A stretch of 64,000 bases of DNA, taken from assembly GCA_049472335.1 (NCBI GenBank), contig JBLIRO010000007.1:13244-77243 (forward strand), read 5' to 3'. This document shows, one piece after another, positions 4,805 to 47,912 of this stretch. Each line of letters opens with the position of its first letter. The stretch's first letter is position 1. The DNA is from a bacterium (GTDB taxonomy: Bacteria > SZUA-182 > DTGQ01 > JAFGSM01). The notes beneath the pieces were generated by a model. That model did no database searches. It was given only the letters and a program-made list of their open reading frames with translations, and was not told where the DNA came from. A program made the translations under genes and the position numbers.

Positions 4805-5653
4805 ATGACTTCGGTGATGAAAATAAAATTCTGGGGAGTCCGGGGCTCGATCCCGAGCCCCGGCAAGTCTACCGTCAGATATGGTGGTAACACTTCCTGC
4901 GTCAGTATCCACACCGGCTCAAATAAAATCCTGGTCTTAGACGCAGGCACAGGTATACGTGAGCTGGGTAATTCAATAAAAGGGGGCCATGAAGAAATTT
5001 TTATCCTTTTATCCCATCGCCACTGGGACCACATTCAGGGCTTTCCATTCTTCTGGCCCATCTATGAATCGCACAGAAAGGTTAATATCCTTTCTAATGA
5101 ACAGGGGAAAAGCATGATATTATCCCTCCTCAATCAGATGGACGGCGCCCATTTCCCCATTGAACCACAAAATCTACCTTCCCTTCATCAATGCATAAAT
5201 GAAGATGTCTCGTCTTTCCTCAGCCATTATGGCTTTACTGTCTCCAGGATAGCCACGAACCATCCGGGCAATGGTTATGGTTATCGCGTTCAGAAAAATA
5301 GTCATTCCGTGATATATCTCACTGATAATGAGCTTGAACCTCCATATAAAAAAGAAACAGAATTTTATGAATTTGTCCAATTCTGCAGGGATACGGATTT
5401 GCTGATACACGATGCTCAATATCTGGAAAAGGATATGCCTCAGAAGCATGGTTGGGGCCATAGCCTGATAATCCAGGTATGCAAGTTAGCCGCGGAGGCA
5501 AAAGTAAAACACTTGATATTGACACACCACGATCCTGAGCGCACTGATAAAGAGATAGATGCCATCCAAAACAGTGCGCGCACCTGGTTCAAGGATAAAG
5601 GCCTTGATATCCAATGCACCGCTGCCTATGAAGGGCTCACAATTTATATCTAA
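4805..5653 (+). CDS. MBL-fold metallo-hydrolase
   Basis: 282 aa with the HxHxDH motif (SHRHWDHIQG) and an N-terminal KFWGVRGSIPSPG...YGGNTSCV pattern. Confidence 0.8.
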   Translation: MTSVMKIKFWGVRGSIPSPGKSTVRYGGNTSCVSIHTGSNKILVLDAGTGIRELGNSIKGGHEEIFILLSHRHWDHIQGFPFFWPIYESHRKVNILSNEQGKSMILSLLNQMDGAHFPIEPQNLPSLHQCINEDVSSFLSHYGFTVSRIATNHPGNGYGYRVQKNSHSVIYLTDNELEPPYKKETEFYEFVQFCRDTDLLIHDAQYLEKDMPQKHGWGHSLIIQVCKLAAEAKVKHLILTHHDPERTDKEIDAIQNSARTWFKDKGLDIQCTAAYEGLTIYI

Positions 5654-8859: not shown

Positions 8860-10374
8860 ATGGGCATTAAAGAATCTATATTTAACAGTTTAAATGGAGC
8901 GTTTGTGGGAGAGGCAATTTCCGAATATGCCACAACTGTTCTATTGATAGATGACTCACGTACAGTTTGTGAGGCTATGAATGAAATCTTTAAGGATGAA
9001 GAGGATATAAAATTTTATTATTGCACTGATCCGGCACAAGAGGAAAAAATGGCCGAGGAAGTTAAACCTACTGTCATCCTTCAGGACCTTGTTATGCCAG
9101 GGATAGATGGATTAACCATGGTTAGCAAGCTCAGAGAAAATAAAATAACCCGCGATGTTCCCATGATTGTTCTTTCCGCCGAAGAAGATCCTAAGATCAA
9201 GGCCGAGGCCTTCGCGCTTGGTGCCAATGATTTTATGGTAAAATTTCCGAACAAAATCGAACTCGTAGCCCGGATTCGTTATCATTCAAAAAGTTATATC
9301 AATTTGTTGCAACGCAATGAAGCTTATCAGGCCCTGATTGAAAGTCAAAGAAGGCTTGAACTACGTAACCGTTTTATCCGTGAAACCTTTGGTCGTTACC
9401 TGTCTGACGATGTAGTAAACAAACTTCTGGAATCTCCCGAAGGGCTTAATCTGGGCGGAGAAAAGCGTAAGTTGACCATCATGATGTCCGATTTAAGGGG
9501 TTTTACATCTCTGGGAGAGAAATTGACACCTGAGCAAGTGGTTAATGTTATCAATAACTATCTAGAGACTATGACGAACATCATTTTTAACTACAATGGA
9601 ACTATTGTGGAGTTTATTGGAGATGCCATTCTCTCTATTTTCGGAGCGCCAAACCAAATGGAGGATGATGCAGCTAAGGCAGTTGCATGTGGGATTGAAA
9701 TGCAATTAGCCATGGATTCCGTCAACGAAAGGAATAAAAAAGAGGGCATGCCGGAATTAAAAATGGGTATAGGTATTAATACCGGTGAGGTCGTTGTAGG
9801 AAATATCGGCTCACAAAAACGCACCAAGTACGGCGTTGTTGGAAATAATGTAAATCTTGCTTCCAGGATAGAATCGTTTACCGTCGGCGGCCAAATACTC
9901 GTTTCTGAAAATACCAAGAAGGATGTGGGTGACATATTGAAGGTGAGTAAAGAGATGGAAGTAGAAACAAAGGGTATAGATGAACCGATTACAATATATG
10001 AAGTGGTTGGAATCAGCGGCGAATATGACCTTTATATGCCCGAAATATTTAGAGATGAACTTCTCTGTCTGCCAAAGGAGATACCAATAAAGTTTGTTTT
10101 AGTTAAAGATAAAAGCGCAAGCGGCACACTTCATCTGGGAAGTATCATCAAACTGTCATCTTTAGAGGCGGAAATAAAATCCCAGACAAAGGTCCGAGAA
10201 CTCTGTGATTTAAAATTTCTGTTGGTGGGACAAAATGACGAAGATATTCCCATTGAGCTTTACGCAAAAGTGATTGACCGGAAAACCGACGATGCCTCCA
10301 CGTTCTTAGTCCATTTCACATCCATGCCTAAAGTCACGGAAAATTATTTAAAAGGGCTTTTGGAAACCTGTTAA
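8860..10374 (+). CDS. response-regulator receiver fused to a class III adenylate/guanylate cyclase, with a C-terminal PilZ-like region
   Basis: REC domain: LLIDDSRT...ILQDLVMPGIDGL...DFMVKF. Cyclase domain: IMMSDLRGFT, FIGDAILSIFGAP, GINTGEVVVGNIG, YGVVGNNVNLASRIE. The last ~120 aa contain DKSASG, resembling the PilZ DxSxxG motif, but I see no clear RxxxR. Confidence 0.9.
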   Translation: MGIKESIFNSLNGAFVGEAISEYATTVLLIDDSRTVCEAMNEIFKDEEDIKFYYCTDPAQEEKMAEEVKPTVILQDLVMPGIDGLTMVSKLRENKITRDVPMIVLSAEEDPKIKAEAFALGANDFMVKFPNKIELVARIRYHSKSYINLLQRNEAYQALIESQRRLELRNRFIRETFGRYLSDDVVNKLLESPEGLNLGGEKRKLTIMMSDLRGFTSLGEKLTPEQVVNVINNYLETMTNIIFNYNGTIVEFIGDAILSIFGAPNQMEDDAAKAVACGIEMQLAMDSVNERNKKEGMPELKMGIGINTGEVVVGNIGSQKRTKYGVVGNNVNLASRIESFTVGGQILVSENTKKDVGDILKVSKEMEVETKGIDEPITIYEVVGISGEYDLYMPEIFRDELLCLPKEIPIKFVLVKDKSASGTLHLGSIIKLSSLEAEIKSQTKVRELCDLKFLLVGQNDEDIPIELYAKVIDRKTDDASTFLVHFTSMPKVTENYLKGLLETC

Positions 10375-10533: not shown

Positions 10534-13500
10534 ATGACTTCGATAACGTGGCTTCATATATCAGACTTGCATGTTTGTCATCCAAAATACGGACACAGCT
10601 ATGAGGAAGTTGCGAAGAAGTTAGTGGACGATTTGAACCGTCTCAAGGATGAACACAACCTGATTCCAGACATGATCTTTTTTACAGGTGATATTGTATT
10701 CGGCCAGAAAAGCGCGGGTGAAGGGAAATCGATACCAGAACAGTATAAGGAAGCAAATATATTCCTTGAAAGCATTAGGACCACTTTTGACGAAGGCTTT
10801 CCCAAAAAAAATATTTTTCTTGTCCCTGGCAATCACGATATAAACCTTACGGTTGACAATAAGTCTCTTATACTATGGCTTCGGGAAAAAGCGGATCTCC
10901 TGAAGTTAACGGAGGTGATCCACGAACCTGCCAGTCTATGGCAGTCTTATATAACTAAATTTAAAGAATATGAAGAGTTTTTAAAAACTTACGGATACGA
11001 GCATCTAATAGGTGATCCGTCAAAAGCTATTTATTCCGATATACGGGAATTCAAAGGGATCAAGGTCGCTATTGCAGGTTTCAATTCTGCATGGTCATCT
11101 TCCGGGAAAGGGAAAAAGGAAAAGGGAAAGCTTTGGCTGGATGGAGAACGGCAATTGTCATCCTTTCGGGCAATCCTCAATAAGGCTAATTTCTCCATAG
11201 CCTTGATGCACCACCCTCTTAGCTGGTTTACAAAAAAAGAATTCCCTTTTTTTCAACGCAAACTGGAACCTGAATTCAAATTTCTGCTTCATGGTCATTA
11301 TCATACAAGCTGGATAACTCAGATTAATGAACATAATCGGATTGCCGCAGGACCTTGCTACTATAATACGGAGAAAGAACCAGGATATAATTTCGTTCGT
11401 TTGAACCTTGAAGAGGGAAAAGGTGAAGTATGGCTCAGGGAATATAATCCATCTGGACCCGGTGAATGGGTTCCATGTCAAACAGACGATGGACAAACGG
11501 ATCAATATGGAAGATATTATTTGATGAATGTCGCCTGGTTGAAGGATATGAAGGATACTCTGAGCATAGGCGCAGGAATAGAAAACGGAGAAACATCTCC
11601 ATCAAGGGTGTATGAAATTCCCAGCATTCATGAAAAAACAGGCATCGAAACATTTCATTCAGATGTTTTTTTACCCGCCCGACTGATTTGTAAGTTTTAT
11701 GAAACTATACATAGTATGGATAAGAGAGAGCTACACGAAGAGGTTTTTCAGGGTGGTCCTACACGAATCAAAGACATGTTCTTACCAAAAGAGGATATAG
11801 ACTTCCAAATGGTGGACCTGAAAAAAGATATTGAGATCCCATTTGAAAAAAAAGGGCCATGGCTCCAAGAATTAAGAACGGAAGAGCAAATCCGAAATCA
11901 CTTCATCCCTTTATGTAAGATATTTAAACATATAGATGAATGGATTTCCAAGGACAGGGATATACTTCTGTATGGCCCCCCATTCTGCGGCAAGACAAGC
12001 CTCCTGACATTTCTGTCGTTGGAAGCCAAGAGGCGATATGGAGACCAGTTGCCCATTGTGCGGCTTAAACCAACCAAGGATCTAAAAAGTGAAGAGATAG
12101 AGGGGGCAGTGACAAGACTGCTTCAACACCTTGAGCATATGGATATCTTTGGCAAAAAAAACCAGGCAATTCTGGTGGTTGACAATATTCATAAGCCCGG
12201 GATATTTGCCATAACCAGAGAATTATTAAAATCACCCCATCATTGCAGGGTCTGGGGCGCCGCCCGTTGCTCCCGATTCGATGAAATCCTGAGCAAGGAC
12301 GAGGAAAATCCATGGAATAAAAAAGGGATTATAAAATATGATTGTGGATTGATTGAAGAAAAAGACGTTGATTATTTCACCGATCATGTTCTAAAGCCCC
12401 TGTTAATTGCCAATGGAGAAGAAAATCAGATTGATGATGTAAAAGCCACTATAAAGTCTATGGACCGAACACCGATCAGGTTCCTTTGTCAAGTGTGGAA
12501 ATTGATTAAAGACAAAAGACTCGATGAAGGCCTTGGATATGCTTCATTGATAAGAAAAGAACCTACAGGTGTGGACGAGATTGTAAGGTCGATTTTACCT
12601 CACAATATCGCCGGTTTAAAGGCAATTGCCATCGCTGCCTTTCTTCAGGGGCCGTCTTGGGAGCTATTAACATATGTTCTTTCAAAAACCGAGAGTTTCG
12701 GAGATGATCTGGCAGCAGAAACCATAACGGATTTGCGCCAATCTCTTGCATTATCTAATGATCCGGAAGAACCAAACAAGGTCTTCATGTATGCCCAGAT
12801 ACAGGAAGAGATTTGCAGACCGGGGAATCTCTCGGATTTCTTTAAGAATGAGATCTGGGGAGGGATCCAAGGATTTCTTAAAGACTGGAAGCATCTAAAA
12901 GAACAGGGTTCCCATGAAAAACTATGCACATTCTGGCTATCCCTATCGGACCTGGCAAAGGAAAATGATCAGAAAGAGATCGCCGTAAATAGTGCTGAAA
13001 GAGCCCTGGAATATGCCTCCGGAGAACAGGAAATAAAGGCCCTGTTTGAAATAGCATTGGCAACAAATCGCCTTAAGGGGAAATGGTGTGAAGACACCAT
13101 CAATCTACTTTGGCGTGCGGTTGAAAAATCCGGGCAAATGGAAAAAGTAACATTAGACGCTGCTTATGCAAAGGCAATTCTTGGAAACCTTTTTCTCAAT
13201 ATCGACCCGCCAAATATTGAAAGGGCCATATCTTTCTTGCACGAAGCCAAAAATGCCTGCGAATTCCTCGGGGCAGACTCAGACGTAGGGCATCTGAATA
13301 AAATGCTTGCACTTGCGAAGATAAATCAAGGGGACAATAAGATCATGCAGGCTGTCCATCATGCGCGACAGGCACTGGAAACATATCGTAAAATCAAGGA
13401 TATTACCAAGGAGATAGAAAGCCTTTATTTGCTTGCTTACTGCCTGCGGATGCAATCAAAACCGGATTGGCCTCAGGCAATCACTTGTTATGGGGAAGCT

Positions 13501-16500
13501 TTGGATCTTTTGAAAGAGCCGGAGCAGCAAGCTGAGCGTGCACAGGCTCTTTATCAGATGGCATTTTGTCTTTATAATCAGGTTAATCCTGATTGGTCTT
13601 CAGCAATCAGGGCATCCGATGAATCTGTCAAGATTCTTAGAGGACTTAAAGACACGCAAGGTTTGATCGATCATTTATTACAGTTTGCATGGTTGTGCCA
13701 TAATCAGGCTAAACCGAACTGGGAAGAGGCAATCTCAAGTTACCGGGAAACACTTGAACTTCCAAAGGCCCCCGAACAAAATGCCGACCGGGCCCTGATT
13801 TTTTATCTGCTGGGATATTGCCTATATAATCAACCTGATCCGGATTGGTCCGGGGCTATCATGTATTTTCAGGATGCGTTGAAACTACAACAGAACCAGG
13901 GACAAGATATAGATAAAGGACTGACACTCTATCAGTTGGCCTTTTGTCTCCATAATAAACCTGAGCCGGATTGGGAAGAAGCTATCAGATCTTATCAGGA
14001 TGCATTAAGGTTCCTGACAGGACCAACTCAACAGACAGAACGGGCGGAGGCATTATTTTATCTGGCATACTGCCTGTATAATCAACCGAAACCTGACTGG
14101 GCCTCAACGATCGCTTGTTACCAAGGTGCACTGGAGCTTCTTACGGACCCGGGAAAAAAAGAAGAACGGTCGGAATCATTTTATCAACTGGCCTTTTGTC
14201 TCCATAACCAATCGGACCCGGACTGGGCAGAGGCCATAGCTTGTTACAAGGAAGCTTTAGAGCTGCTTACCGATACAGGGGAACAATCAGACAGAGCAAT
14301 GGTCCTTTATCAACTGGCCTTTTGCCTTCATAACCAGCCGGACCCGGACTGGGCAGAGGCCATAACACATTACAGGGAAGCCCTGGAACTATTTATTGAT
14401 CCAGAGCACTGGGCTGACAGGGCAATGACATTGCATCAGTTGGCCTTTTGCCTTCATAGCCAGCCGGATCCGGATTGGGCGGAATCTATCGTCCGGTACA
14501 GGGAAGCCTTAGACCTGCTTACTGATCCGGAATACGAATCTGAAAGAGCAATGACACTTTATCAACTGGCCTTTTGCCTCCATTATCAGCCGGATCCGGA
14601 TTGGGCACAGGCGATAACTTACTATAGTAAGGCCTTGGAGCTACTTACCGGTTCAGAACAACAATCAGACAGGGGAATGACTTTATATCAGACTGCCCTT
14701 TGCCATCAATATCAGCCGGATCCGGATTGGGCACAGGCTATAATACACTACCAGGAAGCATCGGAACTACTTACTGATACGGAACATGAAGCTGAGCGGA
14801 TACAATCACTTTACTGGTTGGCATTTTGTTTCCATAATCAACCTGAGCCAGACTGGGCACAGGCTATACAATATTACCGGAAGGTATTGGAACTTCTTTC
14901 GGGACCGGAACATCAATACGAAAGGGCACTATCACTCTACCAGTTGGCTTTTTGCCTTTACAACCAGCCTGAACCTGATTGGCCGGAAGCAATCAAAGCC
15001 TCCATAGAATCTGTCGAGATTTTCGAAAGCCTGGATGATAAGCAAGGCTTGCTGGATTCTCTGCTTCAGTTTGCCTGGTTGTGCCATAATCAGTGCTATC
15101 CTGATTGGTTCAGAGCGATCAGCAGTTACCAGGAAGCCTTAGAACTGCTTACAGGGCCGGAACATAGAACCGAACGTGCTCGAACTCTGTATCATTTAGG
15201 ATTTTGCCTTCAAAACCTTATGGAACCTAAATGGTCTGAAGCTATTACATGTTATATGCAAGCTTTAGAAATACAAACAGATGAAAAGCAACAGACTGAT
15301 AGGGCAAAAACCCTTTATCAATTGGCATTTTGTTTTCAACATCAGGGGGAACCAAACTGGTCAAGGGCGATTACCTGTTACCGCAAAGCATTAGAGCTCC
15401 AGACAGACCCGGAGCAGAAAACTGAGAGGGGACAAACTTTATATCAATTGGCATTTTGTCTCCACAATAGGCAGAAACCAAATTGGTCAGTGGCAATCAA
15501 ATATTATCAAGAGGCATTGGAACTTCAGACGGATACGGAAGAAGATCGCAAAGAAAGAGCAAAGACCCTTTATCAACTGGCATCCTGCTTTCACAAAAGG
15601 CCGACCCCTAATTTTTCAAAAGCAATCCTCTATTATAACGAAGCTTTAGAAATTCAAACGGACCCGGATCAAAGAATCGATCGGGCACGAACGCTCTATC
15701 ATTTGGCATCTTGCCTCCGTAATCAGCCGGAACCGGATTTGTTCCAGGCAGCCGCCTATTACAGAGAGGCACTGAGACTTCAATCAGATCCCGATCAAAG
15801 ATATGACCGGGCAATGACTCTGTATTGGTTAGCGTATTGCGTTTATAAACAACCGGATCCGGATTGGTCCGAGGCAATCAATGTATCGCGTGAATCAGTA
15901 AAAATCTTTAAGGATCTGGAAAAAAATGATGAACTATTGGATTCCTTGATACAGCATGCCTGGTTATGTTACAACCAACCGAAGCCGGACTGGTCTGAGG
16001 CAATAACCCATTACCGGGAGCTAATAGAACTCCAATCGGATCCGGATCAGCAGGCAAACAAGGCAAGATCCCTTTATCTGCTGGCTTATTGTCTCCATAA
16101 TCAGCCTGATCCTGACTGGTCAGAAGCGATAATGTATTACCAGGAAGCTCTAGAATTTCAGACATCTTCAGAACAACAACTCGACAGGGCATGGACACTT
16201 TATCAATTGGCATATTGTCTTCATAATCAATCCGAACCCAACTGGTCTGAAGCCATTAAATATTACCAGGAGGCACTAAGATTACAGATTAATCCTGAAC
16301 AAAGGGCTAACCGTGCACTGACTCTATACTGGATTGCTTCTTGCCTTCATAATCAGCCGGAGCCGGATTGGTCTATGGCCATCAAAACGTCGAAAGAATC
16401 TGTAGAAATCTTTAAGGACCTGAATAAAAAGCAGGATCTTTTGGATTCTTTAATACAGTTTGCCTGGTTGTGTCATAACAAACCGGAGCCGGATTGGGAC

Positions 16501-17475
16501 AATGCAATCAAGTATTATCTTGAGGCTTTGGAATTACAAACAGAGCCGGAACAGCAAGACGACAGGGCATTGAACCTTTTTCAACTGGCAGCCTGTTACC
16601 ATCAAAAACTGGAGCCGGATTGGGACAACGCGATCAAATGTTACAATGAAGCATTGGATTTGCAAACGGATAAGGATCAGCTGGACAACAGGCCACGCAT
16701 GCTTTGTCGTCTGGCTTTTTGCTACCATAATAAGCCTGAGCCGGACTGGGCCCAGGCAATAGATTGTTATCGAAAGGCGCTGGATTTACTAACCTCTCCG
16801 GAGCAAAGATCCGAACGGGCACGGACCCTTTATCAGTTGTCGTATTGTCTTTATAAACAGCCGGAACCGGATTGGGATAACGCAGGCAGGTTTGCAAAAG
16901 AAGGGCTTGAGCTTTCCCGGCTTCTTGGAGAAAGGAGACAACCGCCGTTGCCTCCTTCTCAACTGGCAAGTATATTCGAGGAAATGTCGAGTCCGGATCT
17001 GGAGGCAGCTACCGATTTCCGGCGAGAGTCGGTTGAAACCTTAAAAAACGTGAATAGCATCTTTGATCTCATTGTCACAGTCGACAGAAAAAGCGAATTC
17101 AACGAAGGCGACTATTGGGCAAAGAAGCTCGAGAATACAAGGCTTATCGACATTGATGAATCTGATAATATCGCTTTGGAGGATCAAAGGATGGCCTTTT
17201 TGGATCTCCGCCGAAATGACCTAGACGGGGTTTTCAGTATTGCCAAAAAACTCCATAACGGTCCTCAGCATTCCCGGGCGCTCGGGCTGGCAGCCATTGC
17301 CCACTTCGCAAAGGATGAAAGCGATGCCGCTCTTGAGGATTTGATAAACGCAAAAGCAGGTCGTGAAGACCTTACCTGGCTGAAAAAAATAGCCGAAGGA
17401 TACTTTAAAAGATATAACAGGGATAAGCTGGAAGGCTTCTTAACACTGGTTGATGAGGCAACACAAACTGGATGA
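10534..17475 (+). CDS. giant multidomain protein: metallophosphoesterase, P-loop NTPase, 28 x 42-aa TPR-like repeats and a unique C-terminal domain
   Basis: 2313-aa uninterrupted ORF. The five calcineurin-like phosphoesterase motifs occur in order (HISDLH, FTGDIVF, VPGNHD, LMHHP, LHGHYH). Walker A is LLYGPPFCGKTSLL (nt 11974-11997) and Walker B is AILVVDNIH (~12169-12192). The 126-bp repeat array spans 13414-16945. Confidence 0.9.
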   Translation: MTSITWLHISDLHVCHPKYGHSYEEVAKKLVDDLNRLKDEHNLIPDMIFFTGDIVFGQKSAGEGKSIPEQYKEANIFLESIRTTFDEGFPKKNIFLVPGNHDINLTVDNKSLILWLREKADLLKLTEVIHEPASLWQSYITKFKEYEEFLKTYGYEHLIGDPSKAIYSDIREFKGIKVAIAGFNSAWSSSGKGKKEKGKLWLDGERQLSSFRAILNKANFSIALMHHPLSWFTKKEFPFFQRKLEPEFKFLLHGHYHTSWITQINEHNRIAAGPCYYNTEKEPGYNFVRLNLEEGKGEVWLREYNPSGPGEWVPCQTDDGQTDQYGRYYLMNVAWLKDMKDTLSIGAGIENGETSPSRVYEIPSIHEKTGIETFHSDVFLPARLICKFYETIHSMDKRELHEEVFQGGPTRIKDMFLPKEDIDFQMVDLKKDIEIPFEKKGPWLQELRTEEQIRNHFIPLCKIFKHIDEWISKDRDILLYGPPFCGKTSLLTFLSLEAKRRYGDQLPIVRLKPTKDLKSEEIEGAVTRLLQHLEHMDIFGKKNQAILVVDNIHKPGIFAITRELLKSPHHCRVWGAARCSRFDEILSKDEENPWNKKGIIKYDCGLIEEKDVDYFTDHVLKPLLIANGEENQIDDVKATIKSMDRTPIRFLCQVWKLIKDKRLDEGLGYASLIRKEPTGVDEIVRSILPHNIAGLKAIAIAAFLQGPSWELLTYVLSKTESFGDDLAAETITDLRQSLALSNDPEEPNKVFMYAQIQEEICRPGNLSDFFKNEIWGGIQGFLKDWKHLKEQGSHEKLCTFWLSLSDLAKENDQKEIAVNSAERALEYASGEQEIKALFEIALATNRLKGKWCEDTINLLWRAVEKSGQMEKVTLDAAYAKAILGNLFLNIDPPNIERAISFLHEAKNACEFLGADSDVGHLNKMLALAKINQGDNKIMQAVHHARQALETYRKIKDITKEIESLYLLAYCLRMQSKPDWPQAITCYGEALDLLKEPEQQAERAQALYQMAFCLYNQVNPDWSSAIRASDESVKILRGLKDTQGLIDHLLQFAWLCHNQAKPNWEEAISSYRETLELPKAPEQNADRALIFYLLGYCLYNQPDPDWSGAIMYFQDALKLQQNQGQDIDKGLTLYQLAFCLHNKPEPDWEEAIRSYQDALRFLTGPTQQTERAEALFYLAYCLYNQPKPDWASTIACYQGALELLTDPGKKEERSESFYQLAFCLHNQSDPDWAEAIACYKEALELLTDTGEQSDRAMVLYQLAFCLHNQPDPDWAEAITHYREALELFIDPEHWADRAMTLHQLAFCLHSQPDPDWAESIVRYREALDLLTDPEYESERAMTLYQLAFCLHYQPDPDWAQAITYYSKALELLTGSEQQSDRGMTLYQTALCHQYQPDPDWAQAIIHYQEASELLTDTEHEAERIQSLYWLAFCFHNQPEPDWAQAIQYYRKVLELLSGPEHQYERALSLYQLAFCLYNQPEPDWPEAIKASIESVEIFESLDDKQGLLDSLLQFAWLCHNQCYPDWFRAISSYQEALELLTGPEHRTERARTLYHLGFCLQNLMEPKWSEAITCYMQALEIQTDEKQQTDRAKTLYQLAFCFQHQGEPNWSRAITCYRKALELQTDPEQKTERGQTLYQLAFCLHNRQKPNWSVAIKYYQEALELQTDTEEDRKERAKTLYQLASCFHKRPTPNFSKAILYYNEALEIQTDPDQRIDRARTLYHLASCLRNQPEPDLFQAAAYYREALRLQSDPDQRYDRAMTLYWLAYCVYKQPDPDWSEAINVSRESVKIFKDLEKNDELLDSLIQHAWLCYNQPKPDWSEAITHYRELIELQSDPDQQANKARSLYLLAYCLHNQPDPDWSEAIMYYQEALEFQTSSEQQLDRAWTLYQLAYCLHNQSEPNWSEAIKYYQEALRLQINPEQRANRALTLYWIASCLHNQPEPDWSMAIKTSKESVEIFKDLNKKQDLLDSLIQFAWLCHNKPEPDWDNAIKYYLEALELQTEPEQQDDRALNLFQLAACYHQKLEPDWDNAIKCYNEALDLQTDKDQLDNRPRMLCRLAFCYHNKPEPDWAQAIDCYRKALDLLTSPEQRSERARTLYQLSYCLYKQPEPDWDNAGRFAKEGLELSRLLGERRQPPLPPSQLASIFEEMSSPDLEAATDFRRESVETLKNVNSIFDLIVTVDRKSEFNEGDYWAKKLENTRLIDIDESDNIALEDQRMAFLDLRRNDLDGVFSIAKKLHNGPQHSRALGLAAIAHFAKDESDAALEDLINAKAGREDLTWLKKIAEGYFKRYNRDKLEGFLTLVDEATQTG
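13414..16945 (+). repeat. in-frame tandem array of 28 x 126 bp (42 aa) inside the giant ORF
   Basis: The repeat consensus is RAxTLYQLAFCLHNQPDPDWxEAIxYYxEALELxTDPEQxxD. I counted the units by hand. One unit has an extra codon. Confidence 0.9.
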
Positions 17476-17631: not shown

Positions 17632-18048
17632 TTATAGGGATTGTATAAAACCTTCCCTAATTAAATAGCTTGTTATAGCACTCGTTATCTTTTCTGCAAT
17701 CTTAAGGTCCTCTTTGGCTTCCTCCTTACCAATACTCAAATCAAACTCATAATCTCCAATTTGCCTTTCACGAAAAAGACGGGTAAGCAATTTACTAAAC
17801 TCTTTTGAAAAAATAGAAGTTTTAATGAAATACTGATTAAAAGCACTAATCACGGCAGAATGTTTGGAAAAAACAAGTTGTCTCGTCAGTAGAATAGCTT
17901 CCATTGCATAGAAAGCTGCATAGTAAGCCCTGGATGAGGCAAAGTCATAGTCACCTTCATCAATCTGCCGTTTTGCAGATGCAACAGATCTGTTAGCCTT
18001 TTCTATCATCGTTTTTAATTGATCTCTGAGTAATTTATCATTGTTCAT
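17632..18048 (-). CDS. HEPN domain protein (toxin of a MNT-HEPN pair)
   Basis: 138 aa with the PF05168-like pattern GDYDFASSRAYYAAFYAMEAILL...SKHSAV...RERQIGDYE. It overlaps the upstream nucleotidyltransferase gene by 4 bp. Confidence 0.8.
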   Translation of the reverse strand: MNNDKLLRDQLKTMIEKANRSVASAKRQIDEGDYDFASSRAYYAAFYAMEAILLTRQLVFSKHSAVISAFNQYFIKTSIFSKEFSKLLTRLFRERQIGDYEFDLSIGKEEAKEDLKIAEKITSAITSYLIREGFIQSL

Positions 18049-18365
18049 AAGACTATCCCTTCTTTTGTAACATTCATCAAAAGGGGACTATAGATCTGCC
18101 TTTGATATCTTTCTTCTGAGATAGCAAATGCAGAAATAACCGCATTATATTGATAAAGGGCCTCACCTGTTATTTCATCGATGATCTGGTTGACGTTCCG
18201 CGATACCTTGTCAACAACTACTAAACAATCATAATCGGAGCCTTGAACATCATCTCCTCGCGCCCTTGATCCAAATAAAATAACCTGTTTAAGGTGACTG
18301 CCTATTTTTTTTCGAATTTGAGACACAAGGTATTCCAATACTTCATCTTTTCTGACATGCTTCAT
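18045..18365 (-). CDS. minimal nucleotidyltransferase (MNT antitoxin)
   Basis: 106 aa with the LFGSRARGDDVQGSDYDCLVVVD pol-beta-type NTase motif. Confidence 0.9.
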   Translation of the reverse strand: MKHVRKDEVLEYLVSQIRKKIGSHLKQVILFGSRARGDDVQGSDYDCLVVVDKVSRNVNQIIDEITGEALYQYNAVISAFAISEERYQRQIYSPLLMNVTKEGIVL

Positions 18366-18636: not shown

Positions 18637-18912
18637 TTAATAAACCTGATCATGTGGTCCAATATTGACAGGAACAATGGTTTTTTCTGAAATGAAAAAT
18701 TCCATGGTAATGCGATAGGAGATATTGATTGATACCGAGTAGAGATCCTTTAGATTACCAGATAACATATGCAGCCTTAATGAAGGGTGATAAGGATTTA
18801 ATTCTAGAAGTTTTAATACCTTTTCATAATGGCCAAGTAATTCCGGGTGTTTCCTGGCAAATTTTTTTGCCCGCTTGATATAGCTCTTAGTGTAGATGAG
18901 AGCGTAACTCAT
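18637..18912 (-). CDS. RelE/StbE (YafQ-like) family type II toxin
   Basis: 91 aa ending in ...HMLSGNLKDLYSVSINISYRITMEF...VNIGPHDQVY. It overlaps the upstream antitoxin by 4 bp. Confidence 0.7.
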   Translation of the reverse strand: MSYALIYTKSYIKRAKKFARKHPELLGHYEKVLKLLELNPYHPSLRLHMLSGNLKDLYSVSINISYRITMEFFISEKTIVPVNIGPHDQVY

Positions 18913-19163
18913 CCCTTAGTAATGCGCTTGATGTGATCTTCCACATCTTCTTTTATATAATTACCAGTTTCTAATTCCCTGCGGGCATCTGCAAGGGCTG
19001 CTTCCAGCTCATATTCCCGAAAACGGTTGTAGGTTTCCATATCGACCACCACATATTTACCTTTTCCCCTGACTGTTATGATTACTTCTTCCTGATCTTT
19101 TATTAAATCATCTATCACAGATACCCCTTTTTTCTTCAACTCATTTGCAGATATATATGTCAT
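18909..19163 (-). CDS. Phd/YefM-type antitoxin
   Basis: 84 aa; the sequence ISANELKKKGVSVIDDL...VIITVRGKGKYVVVDMETYNRFREYE is typical of prevent-host-death antitoxins. Confidence 0.65.
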   Translation of the reverse strand: MTYISANELKKKGVSVIDDLIKDQEEVIITVRGKGKYVVVDMETYNRFREYELEAALADARRELETGNYIKEDVEDHIKRITKG

Positions 19164-19328: not shown

Positions 19329-19460
19329 ATCATTATATTCTCTTACAATAAACATACTGAAGGCAATGTCATTGAGTTAAGCATTTACCGTTAAAATATC
19401 CTCTTTTTAAAGGAGCAATTAAGTATTGTGTCCCCTTAATTTCCCCTCCTTAATTTCCCC

Positions 19461-19682
19461 TTAATTTCCCTTTATATAATCACCATTTTCTAATTCCCTG
19501 CGGGCATCTGCAAGGGCTGCTTCCAGCTCATATTCCCGAAAACGGTTGTAAGTTTCCATATCGAGCACCACATATTTACCTTTCCCCCTGACTGTTATTA
19601 TTACTTCTTCCTGATCTTTTATAACATCATCTATCACAGATACCCCTTTTTTCTTCAACTCATTTGCAGATATATACGTCAT
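19461..19682 (-). CDS. orphan paralog of the Phd/YefM-type antitoxin (no cognate toxin downstream)
   Basis: 73 aa, nearly identical to the 18909-19163 product through residue ~65, with a divergent truncated C-terminus (GDYIKGN). Confidence 0.6.
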   Translation of the reverse strand: MTYISANELKKKGVSVIDDVIKDQEEVIITVRGKGKYVVLDMETYNRFREYELEAALADARRELENGDYIKGN

Positions 19683-22004: not shown

Positions 22005-22769
22005 CTAACTAAGTTCAATAGGTCTTATGGATCTGTCCTGCAAAGCCACCTGAAGCTCAATATGTTTGCAATCAAGCTTTTGTAAGACCTTCATGGCATT
22101 TAACTGTACCATATCGTTCATATTGTTCGTCTGACTTATATGCGCCAATACCACATGTTTCAAATCCGTGTGAATAAGGTCCGTCAACAGGGATGCTGAG
22201 TCCTCATTGGAGAGGTGTCCGAACATACCTTTGATTCTTTGTTTAAGCCACCAGGGATATGGCCCCCGGAAAAGCATGCCCGGGTCGTGATTCGACTCCA
22301 GGATTAGACACTGAGACCCTTTGAGGGACTCTCTTACAAGGTGAGTGGGCTTTCCCAGATCGGTTGCCAGACCTATTTTTGATCCTTCACCATAAAAGCA
22401 AAAACCGACAGGATCGGCCGCGTCATGTAAAACTGAGAAGGATTCAAATCCGATGTCTCCTATTTCAAAACCATTGCCTGCTGAAAAGACATGAAGATTC
22501 TTAATAGGATTGTTCATATTATTTTTAAGATTTTCCCAGGTGCCACGGCTCAGATATACAGGGATGTCGAGTCTTTTAACTAAAACCTCCAAGCCCCTTA
22601 CATGATCCGAATGCTCATGGGTAATCACCACGCCATCCAGTTCATCCGGTTTAATCCCAATCTGGTCCAGTCGCCGCAAAATCTCTTTACAGCTAAATCC
22701 TGCATCAATCAGAACACGGGTCTTAGATGAAGTTACAAATGAGGCATTACCCGAGCTTCCGCTTCCCAA
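22005..22769 (-). CDS. MBL-fold metallo-hydrolase (YycJ-like)
   Basis: It has the motif VITHEHSDHVRG. The true start may be a few codons upstream (KISLKICVLGSGSSGNA reads through behind a G-rich SD up to ~22793). Confidence 0.8.
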   Translation of the reverse strand: MGSGSSGNASFVTSSKTRVLIDAGFSCKEILRRLDQIGIKPDELDGVVITHEHSDHVRGLEVLVKRLDIPVYLSRGTWENLKNNMNNPIKNLHVFSAGNGFEIGDIGFESFSVLHDAADPVGFCFYGEGSKIGLATDLGKPTHLVRESLKGSQCLILESNHDPGMLFRGPYPWWLKQRIKGMFGHLSNEDSASLLTDLIHTDLKHVVLAHISQTNNMNDMVQLNAMKVLQKLDCKHIELQVALQDRSIRPIELS

Positions 22770-32397: not shown

Positions 32398-33603
32398 CTA
32401 AAAAGTAAATGGGGTTTTGAATATTTTCTTTTCTTCTTTTAAGTTCTTTTCCTTGTTTTTTTCTAATAAATCACTCTTTTCATCTTTTTCTAAGGGTTTT
32501 TTTTGTGAATTTATTTCCTGTTTTTTTTGAATCTCAAAGAGTTCTTCCTCAACCGCCTTTATTTCTTCATTGATGTTCTGTTGCTCATTCATGAGAGTTT
32601 TCTTTTCCTGAAGTATTTTTTGCATTTCTTCAAGTTTCTTTTTTTGTTGCTGGAGTTCCTCCATATCTTTTTGTAGTTTCTGTCTCTCCAAATCAATTTC
32701 TTTGTCTTTTAGTAAAATATCTTTATGAACTTTAAGATCATCATTATAAAGAAAGTTAATAAAAATAAACTCTCCACCTTCATCCATGGTTCCTTCTAAT
32801 GGTCTACAAATAGGAATTTGTTGGGCATTTCTGGAAATAAAAAGTTTGATTTTTTCGAAAATACTTAGTGGGGTAATATAAAGTTCCTCATTATCTTCTA
32901 ATATCTTTATAAAATAGTAAGCAAAAATAGAATGGTTTTCAAAACCGGTATCTGATACTGGTTGAATATGACCAGAGGTTAAGACCTGACGTGACTTTAG
33001 CTTTCCATAATTTTTTATATAATTATAGTCGATTTTTGCAGGAGGTTTAAAAACCGATCTTAGCAAAAGAGTGCCTGAAAAACATGAATCAGAGACTAAA
33101 TAAATATGCTTACATCCAGCGGCTTTAATTAAATCGTGAATTGTAGAATTTGGTATATAGGTGCTGTAATCACTAAATTTAGAATCAGAAGGTATCCAAT
33201 TTCCGGTATTGAGCTCAGTATCCAGATATCCATGACCTGCAAAATAGATAAACAAGTTATCATCTTGTTTAACCTTTCCTATCAGACTTCTAAATTCTTT
33301 TATTATCCTTCGTCTTGTTGCATCTTGATTAATAAGAAGTACAATATTTTCCTCAGGAAAACCATATTTATGTATTAAAAGCTCATATATTTTTTTAACA
33401 TCATTCACAGCGGTTTGTAAAGGGTCCCATTCATCATATTTATTGATCCCGATTAGAAAACCCCAGAATTCACCTTTTGAAGGGAGATTATTTATATCCT
33501 TTGAGGACACAAAGATACCACGATCCTCACAAAAACTTATTTTAGGACAAAAAAAATATCCTAATATTAATATAATGAAAATACAGCAAATTATTTTTTT
33601 CAT
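32398..33603 (-). CDS. caspase-family (peptidase C14) protein with a signal peptide and a C-terminal coiled coil
   Basis: The catalytic dyad contexts are IYFAGHGY and IYLVSDSCFSG. There is an N-terminal hydrophobic signal (MKKIICCIFIILILGYFF). The last ~110 aa are a K/E/Q-rich heptad-like coiled coil. Confidence 0.85.
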   Translation of the reverse strand: MKKIICCIFIILILGYFFCPKISFCEDRGIFVSSKDINNLPSKGEFWGFLIGINKYDEWDPLQTAVNDVKKIYELLIHKYGFPEENIVLLINQDATRRRIIKEFRSLIGKVKQDDNLFIYFAGHGYLDTELNTGNWIPSDSKFSDYSTYIPNSTIHDLIKAAGCKHIYLVSDSCFSGTLLLRSVFKPPAKIDYNYIKNYGKLKSRQVLTSGHIQPVSDTGFENHSIFAYYFIKILEDNEELYITPLSIFEKIKLFISRNAQQIPICRPLEGTMDEGGEFIFINFLYNDDLKVHKDILLKDKEIDLERQKLQKDMEELQQQKKKLEEMQKILQEKKTLMNEQQNINEEIKAVEEELFEIQKKQEINSQKKPLEKDEKSDLLEKNKEKNLKEEKKIFKTPFTF

Positions 33604-34075: not shown

Positions 34076-34948
34076 ATGACATTATATAAATTTTTCACGC
34101 CTTCATGCATTTTGGTCCTTTTGTTTTTTTCTCTTCCCCAATATAGTTTTGCAAAGCAGTCACAGATTATAGAGGCAGATGGCTATTCATGCATGGGTGA
34201 TGAGAAATCGAGAAAGCAGACAAGAGATGATGCCCTGATAGATGCAAAGAAAAAAGCAGTTCAACATTGTGTGACTTATATTAAGAGTGAAACAAGGATC
34301 GAAAATGCTATCCTCACGCAAGATATTATTGATGCATATACTAATGCAGATATACATATTCTTAATGTGCAAGAATTGGGCTGGTCAAAAGACAAGGATT
34401 CTGGTGAATGCTTTTACGTCCACATAAAGGCAGAGGTCATTCCCCGTGAAGAAGTGATGGAAAAAATAATACAGGGGAAAGCTTTAGAAAAGAACCCTGA
34501 AGCCCCTCTCAATGTCTCTGTCTGGACTGATAAAAAAGAATATTCAAAAGGAGATAAAATAAAAATATATATAAGAGGGAACAAGCCCTTCTTTGGAATA
34601 GTTCTCTATAAGGAGGCTAATGGAAATTTAGTCCAGCTCCTACCTAATCCTTATAGACGAGATCAGTATTTCAATGGCGGTGTTGTCTATGAGATACCCT
34701 CAGGAAATGATAAATTTGAATTGGAGGTGAGACCTCCCTTTGGTGAAGAGATTGTCACCCTTTATGCAAGCACTGAGATGCTGGGTGAAATAGAACTCGA
34801 AAAAGCGAAGGGTGTATATTTGGTAAAGACAAAATATGATGAAGTGCCTTTTAAAACCCGTGGAATTGCTATCACAAGAAAAAAACAAAGGGAAAAAATT
34901 CCTGCCGAATTTTCAGAAGTAAACTATGCTGTTAAGATAGATGAATAA
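34076..34948 (+). CDS. secreted LPP20-like plus DUF4384 domain protein
   Basis: It has a signal peptide ending SFA-KQ, an N-terminal LPP20-like segment (ADGYSCMGDEKSRKQTRDDALIDAKKKAVQHCVTYIKSET) and a DUF4384 pattern (VSVWTDKKEYSKGDKIKIYIRGNKPFFGIVLYKEANGNLVQLLPNP...EIVTLYAS). Confidence 0.65.
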   Translation: MTLYKFFTPSCILVLLFFSLPQYSFAKQSQIIEADGYSCMGDEKSRKQTRDDALIDAKKKAVQHCVTYIKSETRIENAILTQDIIDAYTNADIHILNVQELGWSKDKDSGECFYVHIKAEVIPREEVMEKIIQGKALEKNPEAPLNVSVWTDKKEYSKGDKIKIYIRGNKPFFGIVLYKEANGNLVQLLPNPYRRDQYFNGGVVYEIPSGNDKFELEVRPPFGEEIVTLYASTEMLGEIELEKAKGVYLVKTKYDEVPFKTRGIAITRKKQREKIPAEFSEVNYAVKIDE

Positions 34949-42200: not shown

Positions 42201-42346
42201 GACCGGCCCACAGCGATTATTTCCGGTAATTGGAGTATCTCTGCTGCCAGGGCATTTTTATAGGCCGAACAAAAGGGAAAAAGGGATATGGAGATAAATA
42301 AAACAGCAAATACCATTTTAAAAAAACGGATGAGGCATCTACTCAT
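39293..42346 (-). CDS. large secreted TPR-repeat protein (YbgF-like repeats)
   Basis: 1017 aa with a signal peptide and many degenerate 34-38-aa A..Y..G..y...g.y..A repeats. Confidence 0.8.
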   Translation of the reverse strand: MSRCLIRFFKMVFAVLFISISLFPFCSAYKNALAAEILQLPEIIAVGRSALKLKEERKEALPPERVTGIKDIPEDLVKQDELPSGLEGSKVAPYDSPSSCCIFGSPIEKLFSKTILGDKGYYDLGRFKYQQGQYKEAFNLFLELGSRYPDSSYLGQAYYWAAESAFQAGDLDIGAFYYRYIIEHSPRSRFADYAFYSLGWIMDQRGEEEEAIQLFRTLLSSYYKSPLREKTQYLLGNSLYKVSRFKEAADEYDLFLHNYPMSALVSEAGFWKAEALFQAEEIKEARSAYEWFLKKFPEHPREPSAIYGLSWIHYIQGSYEDVLDLLSDFDKRFPESPLIANVYYLEGKSLFSLKDYIGASDMFMRIADRFPGHPLAEKAIFRLGWSYFHSSEYKQAIRIWLEMTQKYPEGEMKEAGIFMIGEGLYNLKIFADAVSYYRDVAEYVEMPELSQLALFRLGQSYYLQKEYGPAGKAFTTHLELFPNSEIQDQIYYWLGNTRFEEKDFSGAIEYYNKVFKFPESELAELARFGIAWSYYTQEDWPRAKDEFQRLIRDYPKGEKRPEGMFRLAECFYNLGSYKASQKTLQRIIKEYPNIEFKDKIYYRQALVMLRLNDRDKALAYIRRLVSEYPDSPLGAEARYRAGWIYFMMGKYEEALNEFSNIIRIYQDTTFVPQAMLKIGDCFYNMGTYKRAIQNYQRLIDKYPGSDLVKEAKYGIILSLDQTGDMDGYIKNAEEFWERYRQDPLSETIQFRLGSTYQARRDWPKAILVYQRLVDYFPEGKWSARSLKKMAQIYSEIGDYKMAVGTLKTILFRYSDTELKADACLNLGSLYASHGENEKALEYLDQVLTLTDDNGKTSEALFAKGNIYNETGEYRKAKEIYEQVLAQFPESHLSEKANYALGRIYYESGDYKKSKDHFESSMRAEDKDLRLKSIYDLAETYIHLEDYDNAILELMKIIYLYQEKDEWKAKVYYRIGQVYEMQKKNQDALTAYNQAIKFDTEDGTWARQAGKRVEGLKK

Positions 42347-47837: not shown

Positions 47838-47912
47838 TGGTGGAGGACAGGGGATTTGAACCCCTGACTTCTGCCTTGCGAAGGCAGCGCTCTCCCACTG
47901 AGCTAGTCCCCC
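47838..47912 (-). tRNA. tRNA-Ala (anticodon CGC), CCA encoded
   Basis: The reverse complement GGGGGACTAGCTCAGTGGGAGAGCGCTGCCTTCGCAAGGCAGAAGTCAGGGGTTCAAATCCCCTGTCCTCCACCA folds as a cloverleaf by hand. It has a 7-bp acceptor stem with the G3:U70 Ala identity pair, the anticodon loop TTCGCAA and a GGTTCAAAT T-loop. Confidence 0.9.

Follow-up and report, generated by a model that had tools for sequence, protein, structure and literature searches.

An ancient, fixed 28-unit TPR array, the probable sensor arm of a giant bacterial phosphoesterase-NTPase protein

Calcineurin-like phosphoesterases are listed among the N-terminal effectors of bacterial NACHT proteins (bioRxiv 10.1101/2022.07.19.500537, Kibby et al.) and among the effectors of conflict systems (Kaur et al., PMC8195603). 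For DS-8 (DefensePredictor system 8; NF053861), it has been demonstrated that anti-phage defense needs both the metallophosphatase catalytic residues and the NACHT ATPase, and the DS-8 domain has been likened to the cGAMP phosphodiesterase SMPDL3A (PMC13092281). In most Avs proteins, the sensor is made up of TPR-like helical repeats, which are wrapped around a phage protein (PMC13581612). The TPR domains of LGN/Pins and KLC (TPR_12 class) consist of 40-42-residue units, of which the eukaryotic domains contain 6-8. These domains bind extended peptides in their concave groove, and the sensors of Avs proteins are irregular, bilobed TPR-like domains. Here we describe a protein that resembles these systems in different parts of its length.

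In the window, that is, the whole stretch of 64,000 nucleotides of bacterial DNA that was analyzed, a single open reading frame encodes, in this order, a metallophosphoesterase, a divergent P-loop NTPase, a helical region, 28 TPR units and a C-terminal cap. The relevant features are the following:

8860..10374, + strand: gene that combines a response-regulator receiver with a class III nucleotide cyclase; the giant gene lies downstream of it
10534..17475, + strand: the single ORF of 2313 aa, holding the entire array
10534..11553, + strand: calcineurin-like metallophosphoesterase, the presumed effector, aa 1 to about 340 (PF00149, E 3e-10)
11851..12933, + strand: divergent P-loop NTPase and helical domains, aa about 440-800 (weak Pfam AAA match, Walker motifs)
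12934..13413, + strand: irregular TPR-like helical region, aa about 801-960 (pLDDT about 90)
13414..16944, + strand: array of 28 units of 42 aa (126 bp), an LGN/KLC-type TPR solenoid
13603..13707, + strand: variant junction 1, units 2/3, AIRASDESVKILRGLKDTQGLIDHLLQFAWLCHNQ
14170..14799, + strand: central block, units 7-11, the most similar units, including the 26-mer at 14213 and 14339
14989..15093, + strand: variant junction 2, units 13/14 (landmark and structure model)
15556..15558, + strand: one additional codon, separating unit 17 from unit 18
15874..15978, + strand: variant junction 3, units 20/21 (landmark, ortholog comparison)
16378..16482, + strand: variant junction 4, units 24/25 (landmark, ortholog comparison)
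16945..17472, + strand: non-repeated C-terminal cap, about 176 aa long, also conserved where the family occurs in other phyla

The N-terminal part of the protein, the start of which (MTSITWLHISDLH) is common to the homologs P0001, P0002 and P0121, is the part that connects it to described systems. All metal-binding and catalytic motifs of the phosphoesterase are intact (D11-x-H13, G52-D53, G99-N-H-D102 and G254-H-x-H257), and the NCBIfam model DS8_antiphage (E 4.8e-33) and the PADLOC candidate PDC-S60 (E 2.8e-37) both match this domain only. In DS-8, as in the window protein, the homologous phosphoesterase is followed by a P-loop NTPase within one polypeptide, and profile positions 1-274 of 994 are matched; however, the score of the window protein, 114 bits, is below the equivalog cut-off of 790 bits, the NTPase of DS-8 is a NACHT whereas no NACHT is recognizable in the window NTPase, and DS-8, with its 994-position profile, is less than half the length of the 2313-aa window protein. 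In the case of PDC-S60, the N-terminal 292 profile positions match the window phosphoesterase and the other roughly 735 are unmatched, so the two proteins share the effector domain only. No full-protein match to a known defense-system model was found with PADLOC, which returned only the PDC-S60 'Effector' domain and a generic TPR model. In the list of homologs, the same phosphoesterase domain occurs atop NACHT and LRR, NACHT and FGS, AAA_16/NB-ARC and TPR, kinases, and TIR.

The NTPase is divergent. It contains a Walker A motif, GPPFCGKT (aa 481-488; 11974-11997), and a Walker B motif, ILVVD (aa 546-550, with D550 at 12181-12183), both of which are invariant among 8 homologs. The Pfam models of STAND NTPases (NACHT, NB-ARC and AAA_16) do not match this region, for which Pfam yields only weak AAA/IstB matches, and comparison with PDB sequences, by sequence and by profile, gave nothing better than E 0.04, with similarity to AAA+ proteins limited to Walker A. 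The Avs/STAND models of PADLOC and NCBIfam likewise lack a match to it. When the NTPase alignment was compared with the NACHT/AAA_16 modules of phosphoesterase-bearing homologs using hhalign, a probability of about 80% was obtained for the Walker A-B part only, and this test has little power because a control comparison between two STAND groups reached only 44%. A Foldseek search with the NTPase and helical region placed EfAvs5, a SIR2-STAND protein, at the top (E 8.8e-5, 570 columns) and the Avs5 filament 9nc9 in the ninth position, but the TM of the top match is 0.19 and the model is of low confidence (pLDDT 66.6). As far as can be judged from the sequence, then, the NTPase is not placed in STAND; in this respect the window protein differs from the bNACHT and AP-ATPase/TPR conflict proteins, which share its phosphoesterase effector class but carry recognizable STAND modules.

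The 126-bp array is real and is contained within one ORF. The sequence-only reading had counted 28 consecutive 42-aa units, and the count holds: cutting the ORF at 13414 yields 28 in-frame units, and an HMM built from the array units identifies exactly 28 domains (aa 962-2136). The unit consensus is A.TLYQLAFCLHNQPEPDW.EAI.YY.EALEL.TDPEQ..DR. The PDW loop is kept, as that reading had it (P17 in all 28 units, W19 in 26 and D18 in 22), and so is one Cys per unit (28/28), which in 24 units is residue 10 and in the other four, each coming after a variant junction, residue 11; a second Cys, at unit position 25, is present in 7/28 units, and the array contains 37 Cys in total. The GAATC(T/A)GT(C/A) landmarks are found at 13621, 15007, 15892 and 16396, exactly where they had been reported, and they are spaced, again as reported, by 11, 7 and 4 units, the second interval being 3 bp longer on account of the extra codon that follows unit 17. 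In P0121, P0001 and P0004, too, variant junction 1 falls at units 2/3.

The assignment of the units to the 42-aa kinesin-light-chain type of TPR, also proposed from the letters, is borne out by Pfam, by a structure model and by the matches to LGN and KLC. Pfam TPR_12 (PF13424) matches eight stretches with an E-value of 1.5e-59 and 198.6 bits against a cut-off of 30.1. In the AlphaFold2 model of units 11-16 (pLDDT 96.5, pTM 0.90), 12 helices are formed, and the best Foldseek match of this model in the PDB is to LGN (3sf4; TM 0.84, rmsd 3.1), followed by KLC1 (7ai4; TM 0.74), with TM to KLC1/2 of about 0.7. Each unit comprises a helix A, which is 20 aa long and runs from position 36 into the following unit as far as its position 13, then a loop of 5 residues, a 14-aa helix B and a turn of 3 residues; at variant junction 2 of the model, helix B is 17 aa long and the next helix A is 17 aa long, so that the turn is displaced by 3 residues. 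The consensus residues of helix A (L4 in 26/28 units, L7 in 21/28, A8 in 25/28 and L11 in 17/28) and those of helix B, which are offset by a 2-residue loop insertion (A22 in 26/28, Y26 in 22/28 and A29 in 20/28), occupy what we take to be the canonical TPR positions 4, 7, 8, 11 and 20, 24, 27. The fold is thus like that of LGN/Pins and KLC, but the sequence identity is only 16-21%, the array contains 28 units instead of the 6-8 of the eukaryotic domains, two of the eight extra residues fall in a conserved PxPDW loop that links helix A to helix B, and a Cys is found at helix A position 10, where TPRs usually have a small residue. In consensus TPRs, this is a buried small-residue position, and other family members carry L, S or Y for the array Cys in some units; a role in packing therefore appears more likely for the conserved Cys. 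A redox or metal-binding role was considered and is disfavored for the same two reasons. Y5, Q6, H12, N13 and Q14, the residues predicted to face the groove, are fairly uniform across the array and are not diversified.

Comparison with orthologs reveals the age of the array. An ortholog with 62% aa identity, encoded in an independent metagenome, is also 2313 aa long and also contains 28 units, with the four variant junctions at matching unit positions and only four single-residue indels; the per-unit pN/pS between the two proteins is 0.14-0.51. In the closer ortholog L001, the DNA of which is 85% identical, the first eight units correspond position by position to those of the window protein, with a dN/dS of 0.135, compared with 0.08-0.15 for the enzymatic domains. 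The most conserved part between orthologs is the pre-array helical region (81% identity, dN/dS 0.016). The cap, with the motif R..AYLALR.NDL ... W.R.IA.GYF.RY, shows 71% identity to that of P0121, and no database family match to it was found. The array of the window lineage is an ancient one, held at 28 units and four junctions and subject to purifying selection. The gene is located in this lineage not in a variable island but syntenically among housekeeping genes (pur genes, PNPase), a setting that speaks somewhat against an immune sensor; the housekeeping proteins of the genomes with the syntenic locus are only 76-80% identical.

By analogy with the Avs/NLR-type STAND proteins and with DS-8, we consider it probable that the array is the sensor or scaffold arm of an Avs/NLR-like giant effector-NTPase-repeat protein, tied through its effector to anti-phage DS-8. 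The tripartite layout, with a variable N-terminal effector, an NTPase and a C-terminal repeat arm, is present, and the same logic, including the exchange of effectors, is seen in Avs (Avs5, 9jap and 9nc9; Avs7), although the window arm is a near-perfect periodic array of 28 units and the Avs sensors are irregular. Under this scenario, the TPR arm would bind a trigger, most likely a phage protein, and binding would lift autoinhibition; once released, the NTPase would drive oligomerization, and the oligomer would activate the N-terminal phosphoesterase, which would hydrolyze a nucleotide/phosphodiester substrate and so block the infection or kill the cell. The protein would be a less typical representative of immune sensors, given that purifying selection and a fixed repeat number are less usual among arms-race sensors, and the uniform groove residues also count against this reading.

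The genomic context of the gene suggests a different function, which we regard as unlikely but which accounts for several of the observations. The neighboring cyclase might produce a cNMP for endogenous signaling, with the giant protein serving as an NTPase-gated phosphodiesterase, the TPR arm of which scaffolds or senses a cellular partner. The receiver-cyclase gene is found upstream of the giant gene in 4/4 genomes of the lineage (window, L001, L009 and L006), related phosphoesterase domains are labeled by JGI as CpdA-like cAMP phosphodiesterases, and the comparison of the DS-8 domain with SMPDL3A (PMC13092281) points in the same direction, as do the stable housekeeping synteny, the purifying selection, the fixed unit number and the uniform groove residues. 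However, the conserved gene order extends beyond the cyclase to a larger block (SprT-like, DUF1805, cyclase, giant gene, purB), and the adjacency of the cyclase may therefore reflect shared ancestry only; in L006, one Sua5-like housekeeping gene intervenes between the cyclase and the giant gene; and no cyclase is present beside the Anaerolineales and Acidobacteriota members of the family. Because the block is larger and the link is missing outside the window lineage, we downgraded the functional connection to the cyclase. Furthermore, the replacement of the phosphoesterase by TIR within the family better suits a death or immune effector than a dedicated phosphodiesterase. A stronger version, in which the cyclase and the giant protein form a self-contained circuit, with the cyclase writing the cNMP and the NTPase-gated phosphoesterase erasing it only when the 28-unit arm is occupied, appears improbable. 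In this version, given its fixed length, four hinge-like junctions and uniform groove, the arm may bind a long periodic or polymeric ligand as opposed to a single globular phage protein; if true, effector-NTPase-repeat proteins would have a sensing mode that is new for them, and the family would be a new one beyond the STAND clades recognized so far. As for the other neighbors, the best named matches of the SprT-like protein are from Thermodesulfobacteriota/Desulfobacterales (about 55% identity), the giant gene of the window is directly followed by two toxin-antitoxin pairs, HEPN/MNT and RelE/Phd, and the Anaerolineales member of the family is adjoined by a NOV_C-containing SF2 helicase and a DUF1156 methylase; these defense-type neighbors favor the immune-sensor reading.

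It is highly improbable that the array is a fast-evolving recognition surface that was shaped by recent unequal recombination and organized in super-repeats, as proposed in the sequence-only reading. It is true that no other units of the array resemble each other as much as units 7-11, which have exact runs of 26-29 nt in common: the 26-mer was recovered at 14213 and 14339, and the longest run common to two units, 29 nt, is found in units 10 and 11. Nevertheless, to describe the central units as very similar at the DNA level is an overstatement: the pairwise identity among units 7-11 is 60-75% (69-75% in 9/10 pairs), and over all unit pairs the mean is about 56%, with a maximum of 75% for units 8 and 10. 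Tandem Repeats Finder detects the 126-bp period only at 14180-14786 (4.8 copies, 73% matches) and at 16480-16750 (2.2 copies, 72%), and the rest of the array falls under its threshold of roughly 70%. The 26-nt run, with p = 0.0045 in a column-weighted permutation, is non-significant against the Bonferroni threshold of 1.3e-4 for 378 pairs, and in a gene-conversion test on the longest common runs, none of the unit pairs passed the correction. Even in the most similar unit pairs, the synonymous differences (pS) amount to 0.57-0.70, which corresponds to dS above 1, that is, saturation. Among canonical units, identity drops smoothly with distance, from 0.64 at lag 1 to 0.57 at lags of 9 and more, and the peaks sought at lags 4, 7 and 11 were not found in this analysis; with irregular 11/7/4 spacings and with junction-adjacent units no closer to each other than the background, the super-repeats are not borne out. 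The four interspersed variant junctions are the sole 'higher-order structure' in the array.

What does remain of local similarity appears to be old. Units 8-11 are more alike within a genome (0.65 and 0.68) than between orthologs (0.54), and this pattern, which could be cited in favor of a fast-evolving surface, points instead to old, local concerted evolution; the block of units 7-11 is the only place with such a signature, and only units 8-11 were homogenized, long ago. Recent duplications and differences in unit number in other family members could be cited likewise. For the window gene, recent unequal recombination is contradicted by the saturated synonymous sites and by the 62%-identical ortholog with an equal number of units and the same junction positions, and rapid evolution of the surface by the dN/dS of 0.135 across the positionally orthologous units 1-8 of L001 and by the low per-unit pN/pS. 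A constant unit number in an ortholog combined with purifying selection, the very outcome that had been named in advance as contrary to the proposal, is what was obtained.

The chance that expansion or collapse during assembly produced the array is negligible. Related short-read contigs do break in the array (that of L001 stops within the repeats and shows a frameshift and a period of 191 bp), the L008 array has a masked gap, and L007 and P0005 differ by four units. However, all exact repeats in the window array are 29 nt or shorter, which k-mers of ordinary length can resolve; the reading frame is uninterrupted over 6.9 kb and terminates in the conserved family cap; and an ortholog of exactly this length is encoded on a contig from an independent metagenome.

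The probable sensor protein belongs to a family that is, as judged from its recovered members, small: among 1.84 billion cluster representatives, the NTPase module has 40 representatives at E <=1e-3. No relatives were retrieved when species-representative genomes were scanned with the first 929 aa of the protein, an exact look-up of the window protein returned no record, and the models of Pfam, NCBIfam and PADLOC recognize nothing in the family beyond the effector and generic TPR. The members retain the NTPase, the 42-aa TPR subtype and the cap, and exchange the N-terminal domain. A phosphoesterase is found in the window protein and in P0121, P0003, P0005, P0123, P0125 and P0128; the Acidobacteriota member L008 has a TIR_2 domain (Pfam E 3e-7), which the N-terminus of P0130 resembles in a by-eye comparison; and P0004 lacks an N-terminal effector. 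The family places the metallophosphatase effector, in alternation with TIR, on a different NTPase chassis.

The recent amplification that was claimed for the window gene fails there, but it does apply to other members of the family, which carry near-identical duplicated units. The number of units is 12 in L007 against 8 in P0005, and 11 in P0003; in P0128, 9 unit pairs are at least 85% identical, and in P0130, 3 unit pairs reach this level and a repeated four-unit block is discernible by eye. In these sister lineages, the array type is still expanding through the duplication of units and unit blocks.

The array itself is largely explained, in that it is an ordinary 42-residue TPR solenoid. The broader interest lies in the protein and in the family. 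The metallophosphatase effector class has only recently been validated in DS-8, and here it is mounted on another NTPase chassis. Within the family, an array of 28 units with four junctions that is fixed across 62% protein identity contrasts with sister lineages that are duplicating units at present, and the family may therefore be a useful case for finding out what sets the repeat number in NLR-like sensors.

The whole 126-bp array (13414-16944) is contained in one ORF, 10534-17475 (+), encoding a protein of 2313 aa. Translation cut at 13414 yields 28 consecutive 42-aa units, with a single additional codon (15556-15558) between units 17 and 18, and searching it with an HMM derived from these units gives exactly 28 domains as well (aa 962-2136), the number obtained in a sequence-only reading of this DNA. 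The unit consensus is A.TLYQLAFCLHNQPEPDW.EAI.YY.EALEL.TDPEQ..DR; P17 is invariant across the units, and W19, A22 and I23 are each conserved in 26 of the 28. The array contains 37 Cys residues, including one at unit position 10 in 24 units (position 11 in the remaining four) and a second one at position 25 in 7 units. The landmarks GAATC(T/A)GT(C/A), at 13621, 15007, 15892 and 16396, mark four variant junctions (units 2/3, 13/14, 20/21 and 24/25), and copies of a 26-mer occur at 14213 and 14339, all as originally reported. That description was accurate but overstated the similarity of the units at the DNA level and over-read the landmark spacing. Tandem Repeats Finder detects the period of 126 only at 14180-14786 and 16480-16750, with 72-73% matches; these are the two best-preserved stretches.

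The mean DNA identity between unit pairs is ~56%, with a maximum of 75% (units 8 and 10), and the pairs within units 7-11 range from 60% to 75%, nine of the ten falling at 69-75%. In the most similar pairs, synonymous differences amount to 0.57-0.70, which implies dS >1, and the mean pS across all unit pairs, 0.78, corresponds to saturation. Units 10 and 11 have the longest exact run in common, 29 nt. The 26-nt run codes for PDPDWAEAI, the best-conserved peptide in the unit, and its p value of 0.0045, from a permutation with column-conservation weights, falls far short of the threshold of 1.3e-4 set for 378 unit pairs. Among the canonical units, identity drops smoothly with distance, from 0.64 at lags 1-2 to about 0.57 past lag 9, without a peak at lag 4, 7 or 11, and the similarity of the junction-flanking units does not exceed background; this pattern indicates that the array grew by ancient local duplication. 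The super-repeats deduced from the landmark spacing are absent, and there are only four interspersed variant junctions.

The same gene is present in the same neighbourhood on three independent contigs. One of these, L001 (JGI 3300041075), shows ~85% DNA identity to the window and remains collinear with it past unit 8, into unit 9; for L001 units 1-8 the best match is always the same-numbered window unit (78-85%, with any other unit at <=75%). The dN/dS for these units is 0.135, the values for the phosphoesterase, the NTPase and the pre-array helices being 0.083, 0.111 and 0.016, respectively. The L001 contig terminates inside the array (13761-14142 on that contig), where the frame shifts and a period of 191 bp (92% identity) appears; this is probably a short-read misassembly, in which case the recorded protein P0001 (1319 aa) is truncated. 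The ortholog P0121, encoded on L009 (JGI 3300005832) and found in an exhaustive representative search, is 62% identical to the window protein, consists of exactly 2313 aa with only four single-residue indels, and contains 28 units with the four variant junctions at identical unit positions. An assembly artefact is ruled out by this identity of length, unit count and junction positions. The neighbours are also those of the window, at 68-80% identity: the receiver-cyclase upstream, and purB, a metallo-beta-lactamase (MBL)-fold gene, dUTPase, M16 peptidase and PNPase downstream. Between P0121 and the window protein, pN/pS is 0.29 for the array (0.14 to 0.51 for individual units), 0.33 for the NTPase and 0.23 for the phosphoesterase; the helix-A Cys is kept in all 28 orthologous unit pairs, and the most variable positions (40, 24, 21, 25, 35 and 39) map to one face of helix B and the linker. 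A fixed unit number in orthologs combined with purifying selection is what the sequence-only reading itself had named as contradicting its proposal that the units were amplified recently and form a rapidly evolving surface; given the 28-unit ortholog and the saturated synonymous sites, both ideas are untenable for the window gene. Within either genome, units 8-11 resemble one another (identity 0.65 in the window, 0.68 in P0121) more than they resemble their orthologs (0.54), which indicates that concerted evolution of this central block postdates the split of the two lineages, whereas in units 15-19 the order is reversed. This concerted evolution left the unit count unchanged and is old enough for the synonymous sites in the window to have saturated since.

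The expected amplification is present in the family, in which the unit number spans ~3 to 28, but is absent from the window gene. An Anaerolineales gene, otherwise nearly identical in the two sources, has 12 units in MAG UBA6092 (L007, 8762-13186) and 8 in JGI contig L003 (P0005, 10001-13915); a block of four units has apparently been duplicated, identity between unit pairs reaching 100%, and the difference represents either real strain variation or assembly collapse. P0003, a paralog or close relative of this gene, has 11 units and a Tandem Repeats Finder period of 378 bp; P0128 contains nine unit pairs with at least 85% identity, and P0130 three such pairs along with a four-unit block that is repeated by eye.

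The structural model of units 11-16, built from an alignment of non-overlapping segments of the window array, P0121 and other members, is very confident (pLDDT 96.5, pTM 0.90). Helix A comprises 20 residues, starting at P36 of the preceding unit and ending at N13; it is followed by a 5-residue A-B loop (Q-P-x-P-D), a 14-residue helix B (W19 to L32) and a 3-residue turn. Among PDB structures, LGN/Pins (TM up to 0.84) and KLC1/2 (TM ~0.7) fit best, and the initial assignment to the 42-residue KLC-type TPR was right. L4, L7, A8 and L11 occupy the canonical helix-A positions of the consensus TPR, and the array Cys falls on consensus position 10, where a small buried residue is usual; a packing role is the simplest reading. 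At junction 13/14, helix B is 17 residues long and the next helix A is down to 17, so that the turn is shifted by about one helical turn and the period is still 42. Because their positions are conserved between orthologs, the variant junctions are architectural, and they probably dislocate the solenoid locally or serve as its hinges. The window also encodes a second, unrelated large TPR protein (39293-42346 (-), 1017 aa) with 34-residue TPR types and YfiO/BamD-like matches.

The N-terminal portion of the giant protein, aa 1 to ~340, is a calcineurin-like metallophosphoesterase with all metal-binding motifs intact. This domain alone is matched by NCBIfam DS8_antiphage (E 4.8e-33) and PADLOC PDC-S60 (E 2.8e-37). 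DS-8, a metallophosphatase-NACHT protein, guards E. coli against phage, and protection requires both the catalytic residues and the ATPase (PMC13092281). Hundreds of homologs are headed by the same phosphoesterase, followed by NACHT and LRR, NACHT and FGS, AAA_16/NB-ARC and TPR, kinases or TIR, in agreement with published lists that count calcineurin-like phosphoesterases among the effector classes of NLR-like proteins in bacteria.

A linker leads to a P-loop NTPase whose Walker A (GPPFCGKT, aa 481-488) and Walker B (ILVVD, aa 546-550) motifs are invariant in eight homologs; RVWGAAR and G.VP.RFL resemble NB-ARC-type post-Walker motifs on visual impression only. The module defies classification by sequence: Pfam yields only weak AAA and IstB matches, comparison with PDB sequences nothing significant, and hhalign against NACHT and AAA_16 modules ~80% probability from Walker A to Walker B only. 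When aa 401-960 were modelled with AlphaFold2, the NTPase part came out mediocre (mean pLDDT 66.6); the Avs5 SIR2-STAND protein ranks first among the PDB matches of this model (E 8.8e-5, TM 0.19), which also include an Avs5 filament entry, so membership in the STAND class is plausible but unproven. The module is rare, with 40 cluster representatives at E <=1e-3 among 1.84 billion.

Members of the family share the NTPase, the TPR subtype C-L-H-x-[QK]-P-x-P-[DE]-W and a conserved C-terminal cap, and differ in the N-terminus:

Phosphoesterase: window protein, P0121, P0003, P0005, P0123, P0125, P0128
TIR: L008, Acidobacteriota MAG (Pfam TIR_2, E 3e-7)
Similar by eye to the TIR of L008: P0130
Adaptor-like and glycosyltransferase-like, read by eye: P0127 and P0147/P0149
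No N-terminal effector domain: P0004

The hosts include Anaerolineales and Acidobacteriota MAGs; in the window lineage, one neighbouring gene has its best named matches in Thermodesulfobacteriota (~55% identity).

The analysis establishes the order of the domains, the intactness of the motifs, the TPR fold, the exchange of effectors between members, the rarity of the family and the antiquity and constancy of the array. The mechanism is modelled on Avs/NLR proteins (PMC13581612) and on DS-8: the TPR arm would bind a trigger, the NTPase would oligomerise, and the activated phosphoesterase would hydrolyse a nucleotide or phosphodiester substrate. The genomic context lends mixed support to such an immune sensor. 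The Anaerolineales member adjoins an SF2 helicase with NOV_C and a DUF1156 methylase; the helicase gene overlaps the family gene by 4 bp in L003 and L007 and abuts it in L002, and in L007 encodes 1132 aa (ResIII, Helicase_C, NOV_C), followed by the DUF1156 methyltransferase-like protein. Directly downstream of the giant gene, before purC/purB, are two toxin-antitoxin-like pairs:

17632-18365 (-), HEPN and nucleotidyltransferase (MNT) pair
18637-19163 (-), RelE/HigB-like and Phd/YefM pair

Both are missing from L009, where the giant gene abuts purB, and look like insertions at this spot. An 11-14-bp tandem repeat (CCTTAATTTCCCCT) occupies intergenic positions 19431-19474, between the antitoxin gene and purC. 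Vertical inheritance among housekeeping genes, purifying selection on the array, and the rather uniform presumed groove residues (Y5, Q6, H12, N13, Q14) count against a classical arms-race sensor.

Elsewhere in the window, a 29% GC stretch holds a caspase-domain (Peptidase_C14) ORF (32398-33603 (-)), which adjoins a DUF4384 protein gene (34076-34948 (+)); this may be a separately acquired conflict-type module. Another low-GC stretch (33-35%, within 44-52 kb) carries tRNA-Ala(CGC) (47838-47912 (-)) and zinc-ribbon/RDD and inositol-1-phosphate synthase genes. Of the two MBL-fold genes, 4805-5653 (+) and 22005-22769 (-), the latter has a weak, sub-threshold Pfam match to the anti-Pycsar Apyc1 family; the former's ortholog in L001 has the same family in its precomputed list.

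The main alternative, an endogenous cyclic-nucleotide circuit, draws on the gene for a response-regulator receiver fused to a class III adenylate/guanylate cyclase (8860-10374 (+)) that precedes the giant gene in each of the lineage's four genomes (window, L001, L009 and L006). This adjacency, however, belongs to a larger syntenic block, is interrupted by a Sua5-like gene in L006, and is not seen beside family members in other phyla, making such a circuit rather unlikely. The favoured reading takes the array as the sensor arm in a new, rare effector-NTPase-TPR family, which is nearest to DS-8 by effector and to Avs by logic.
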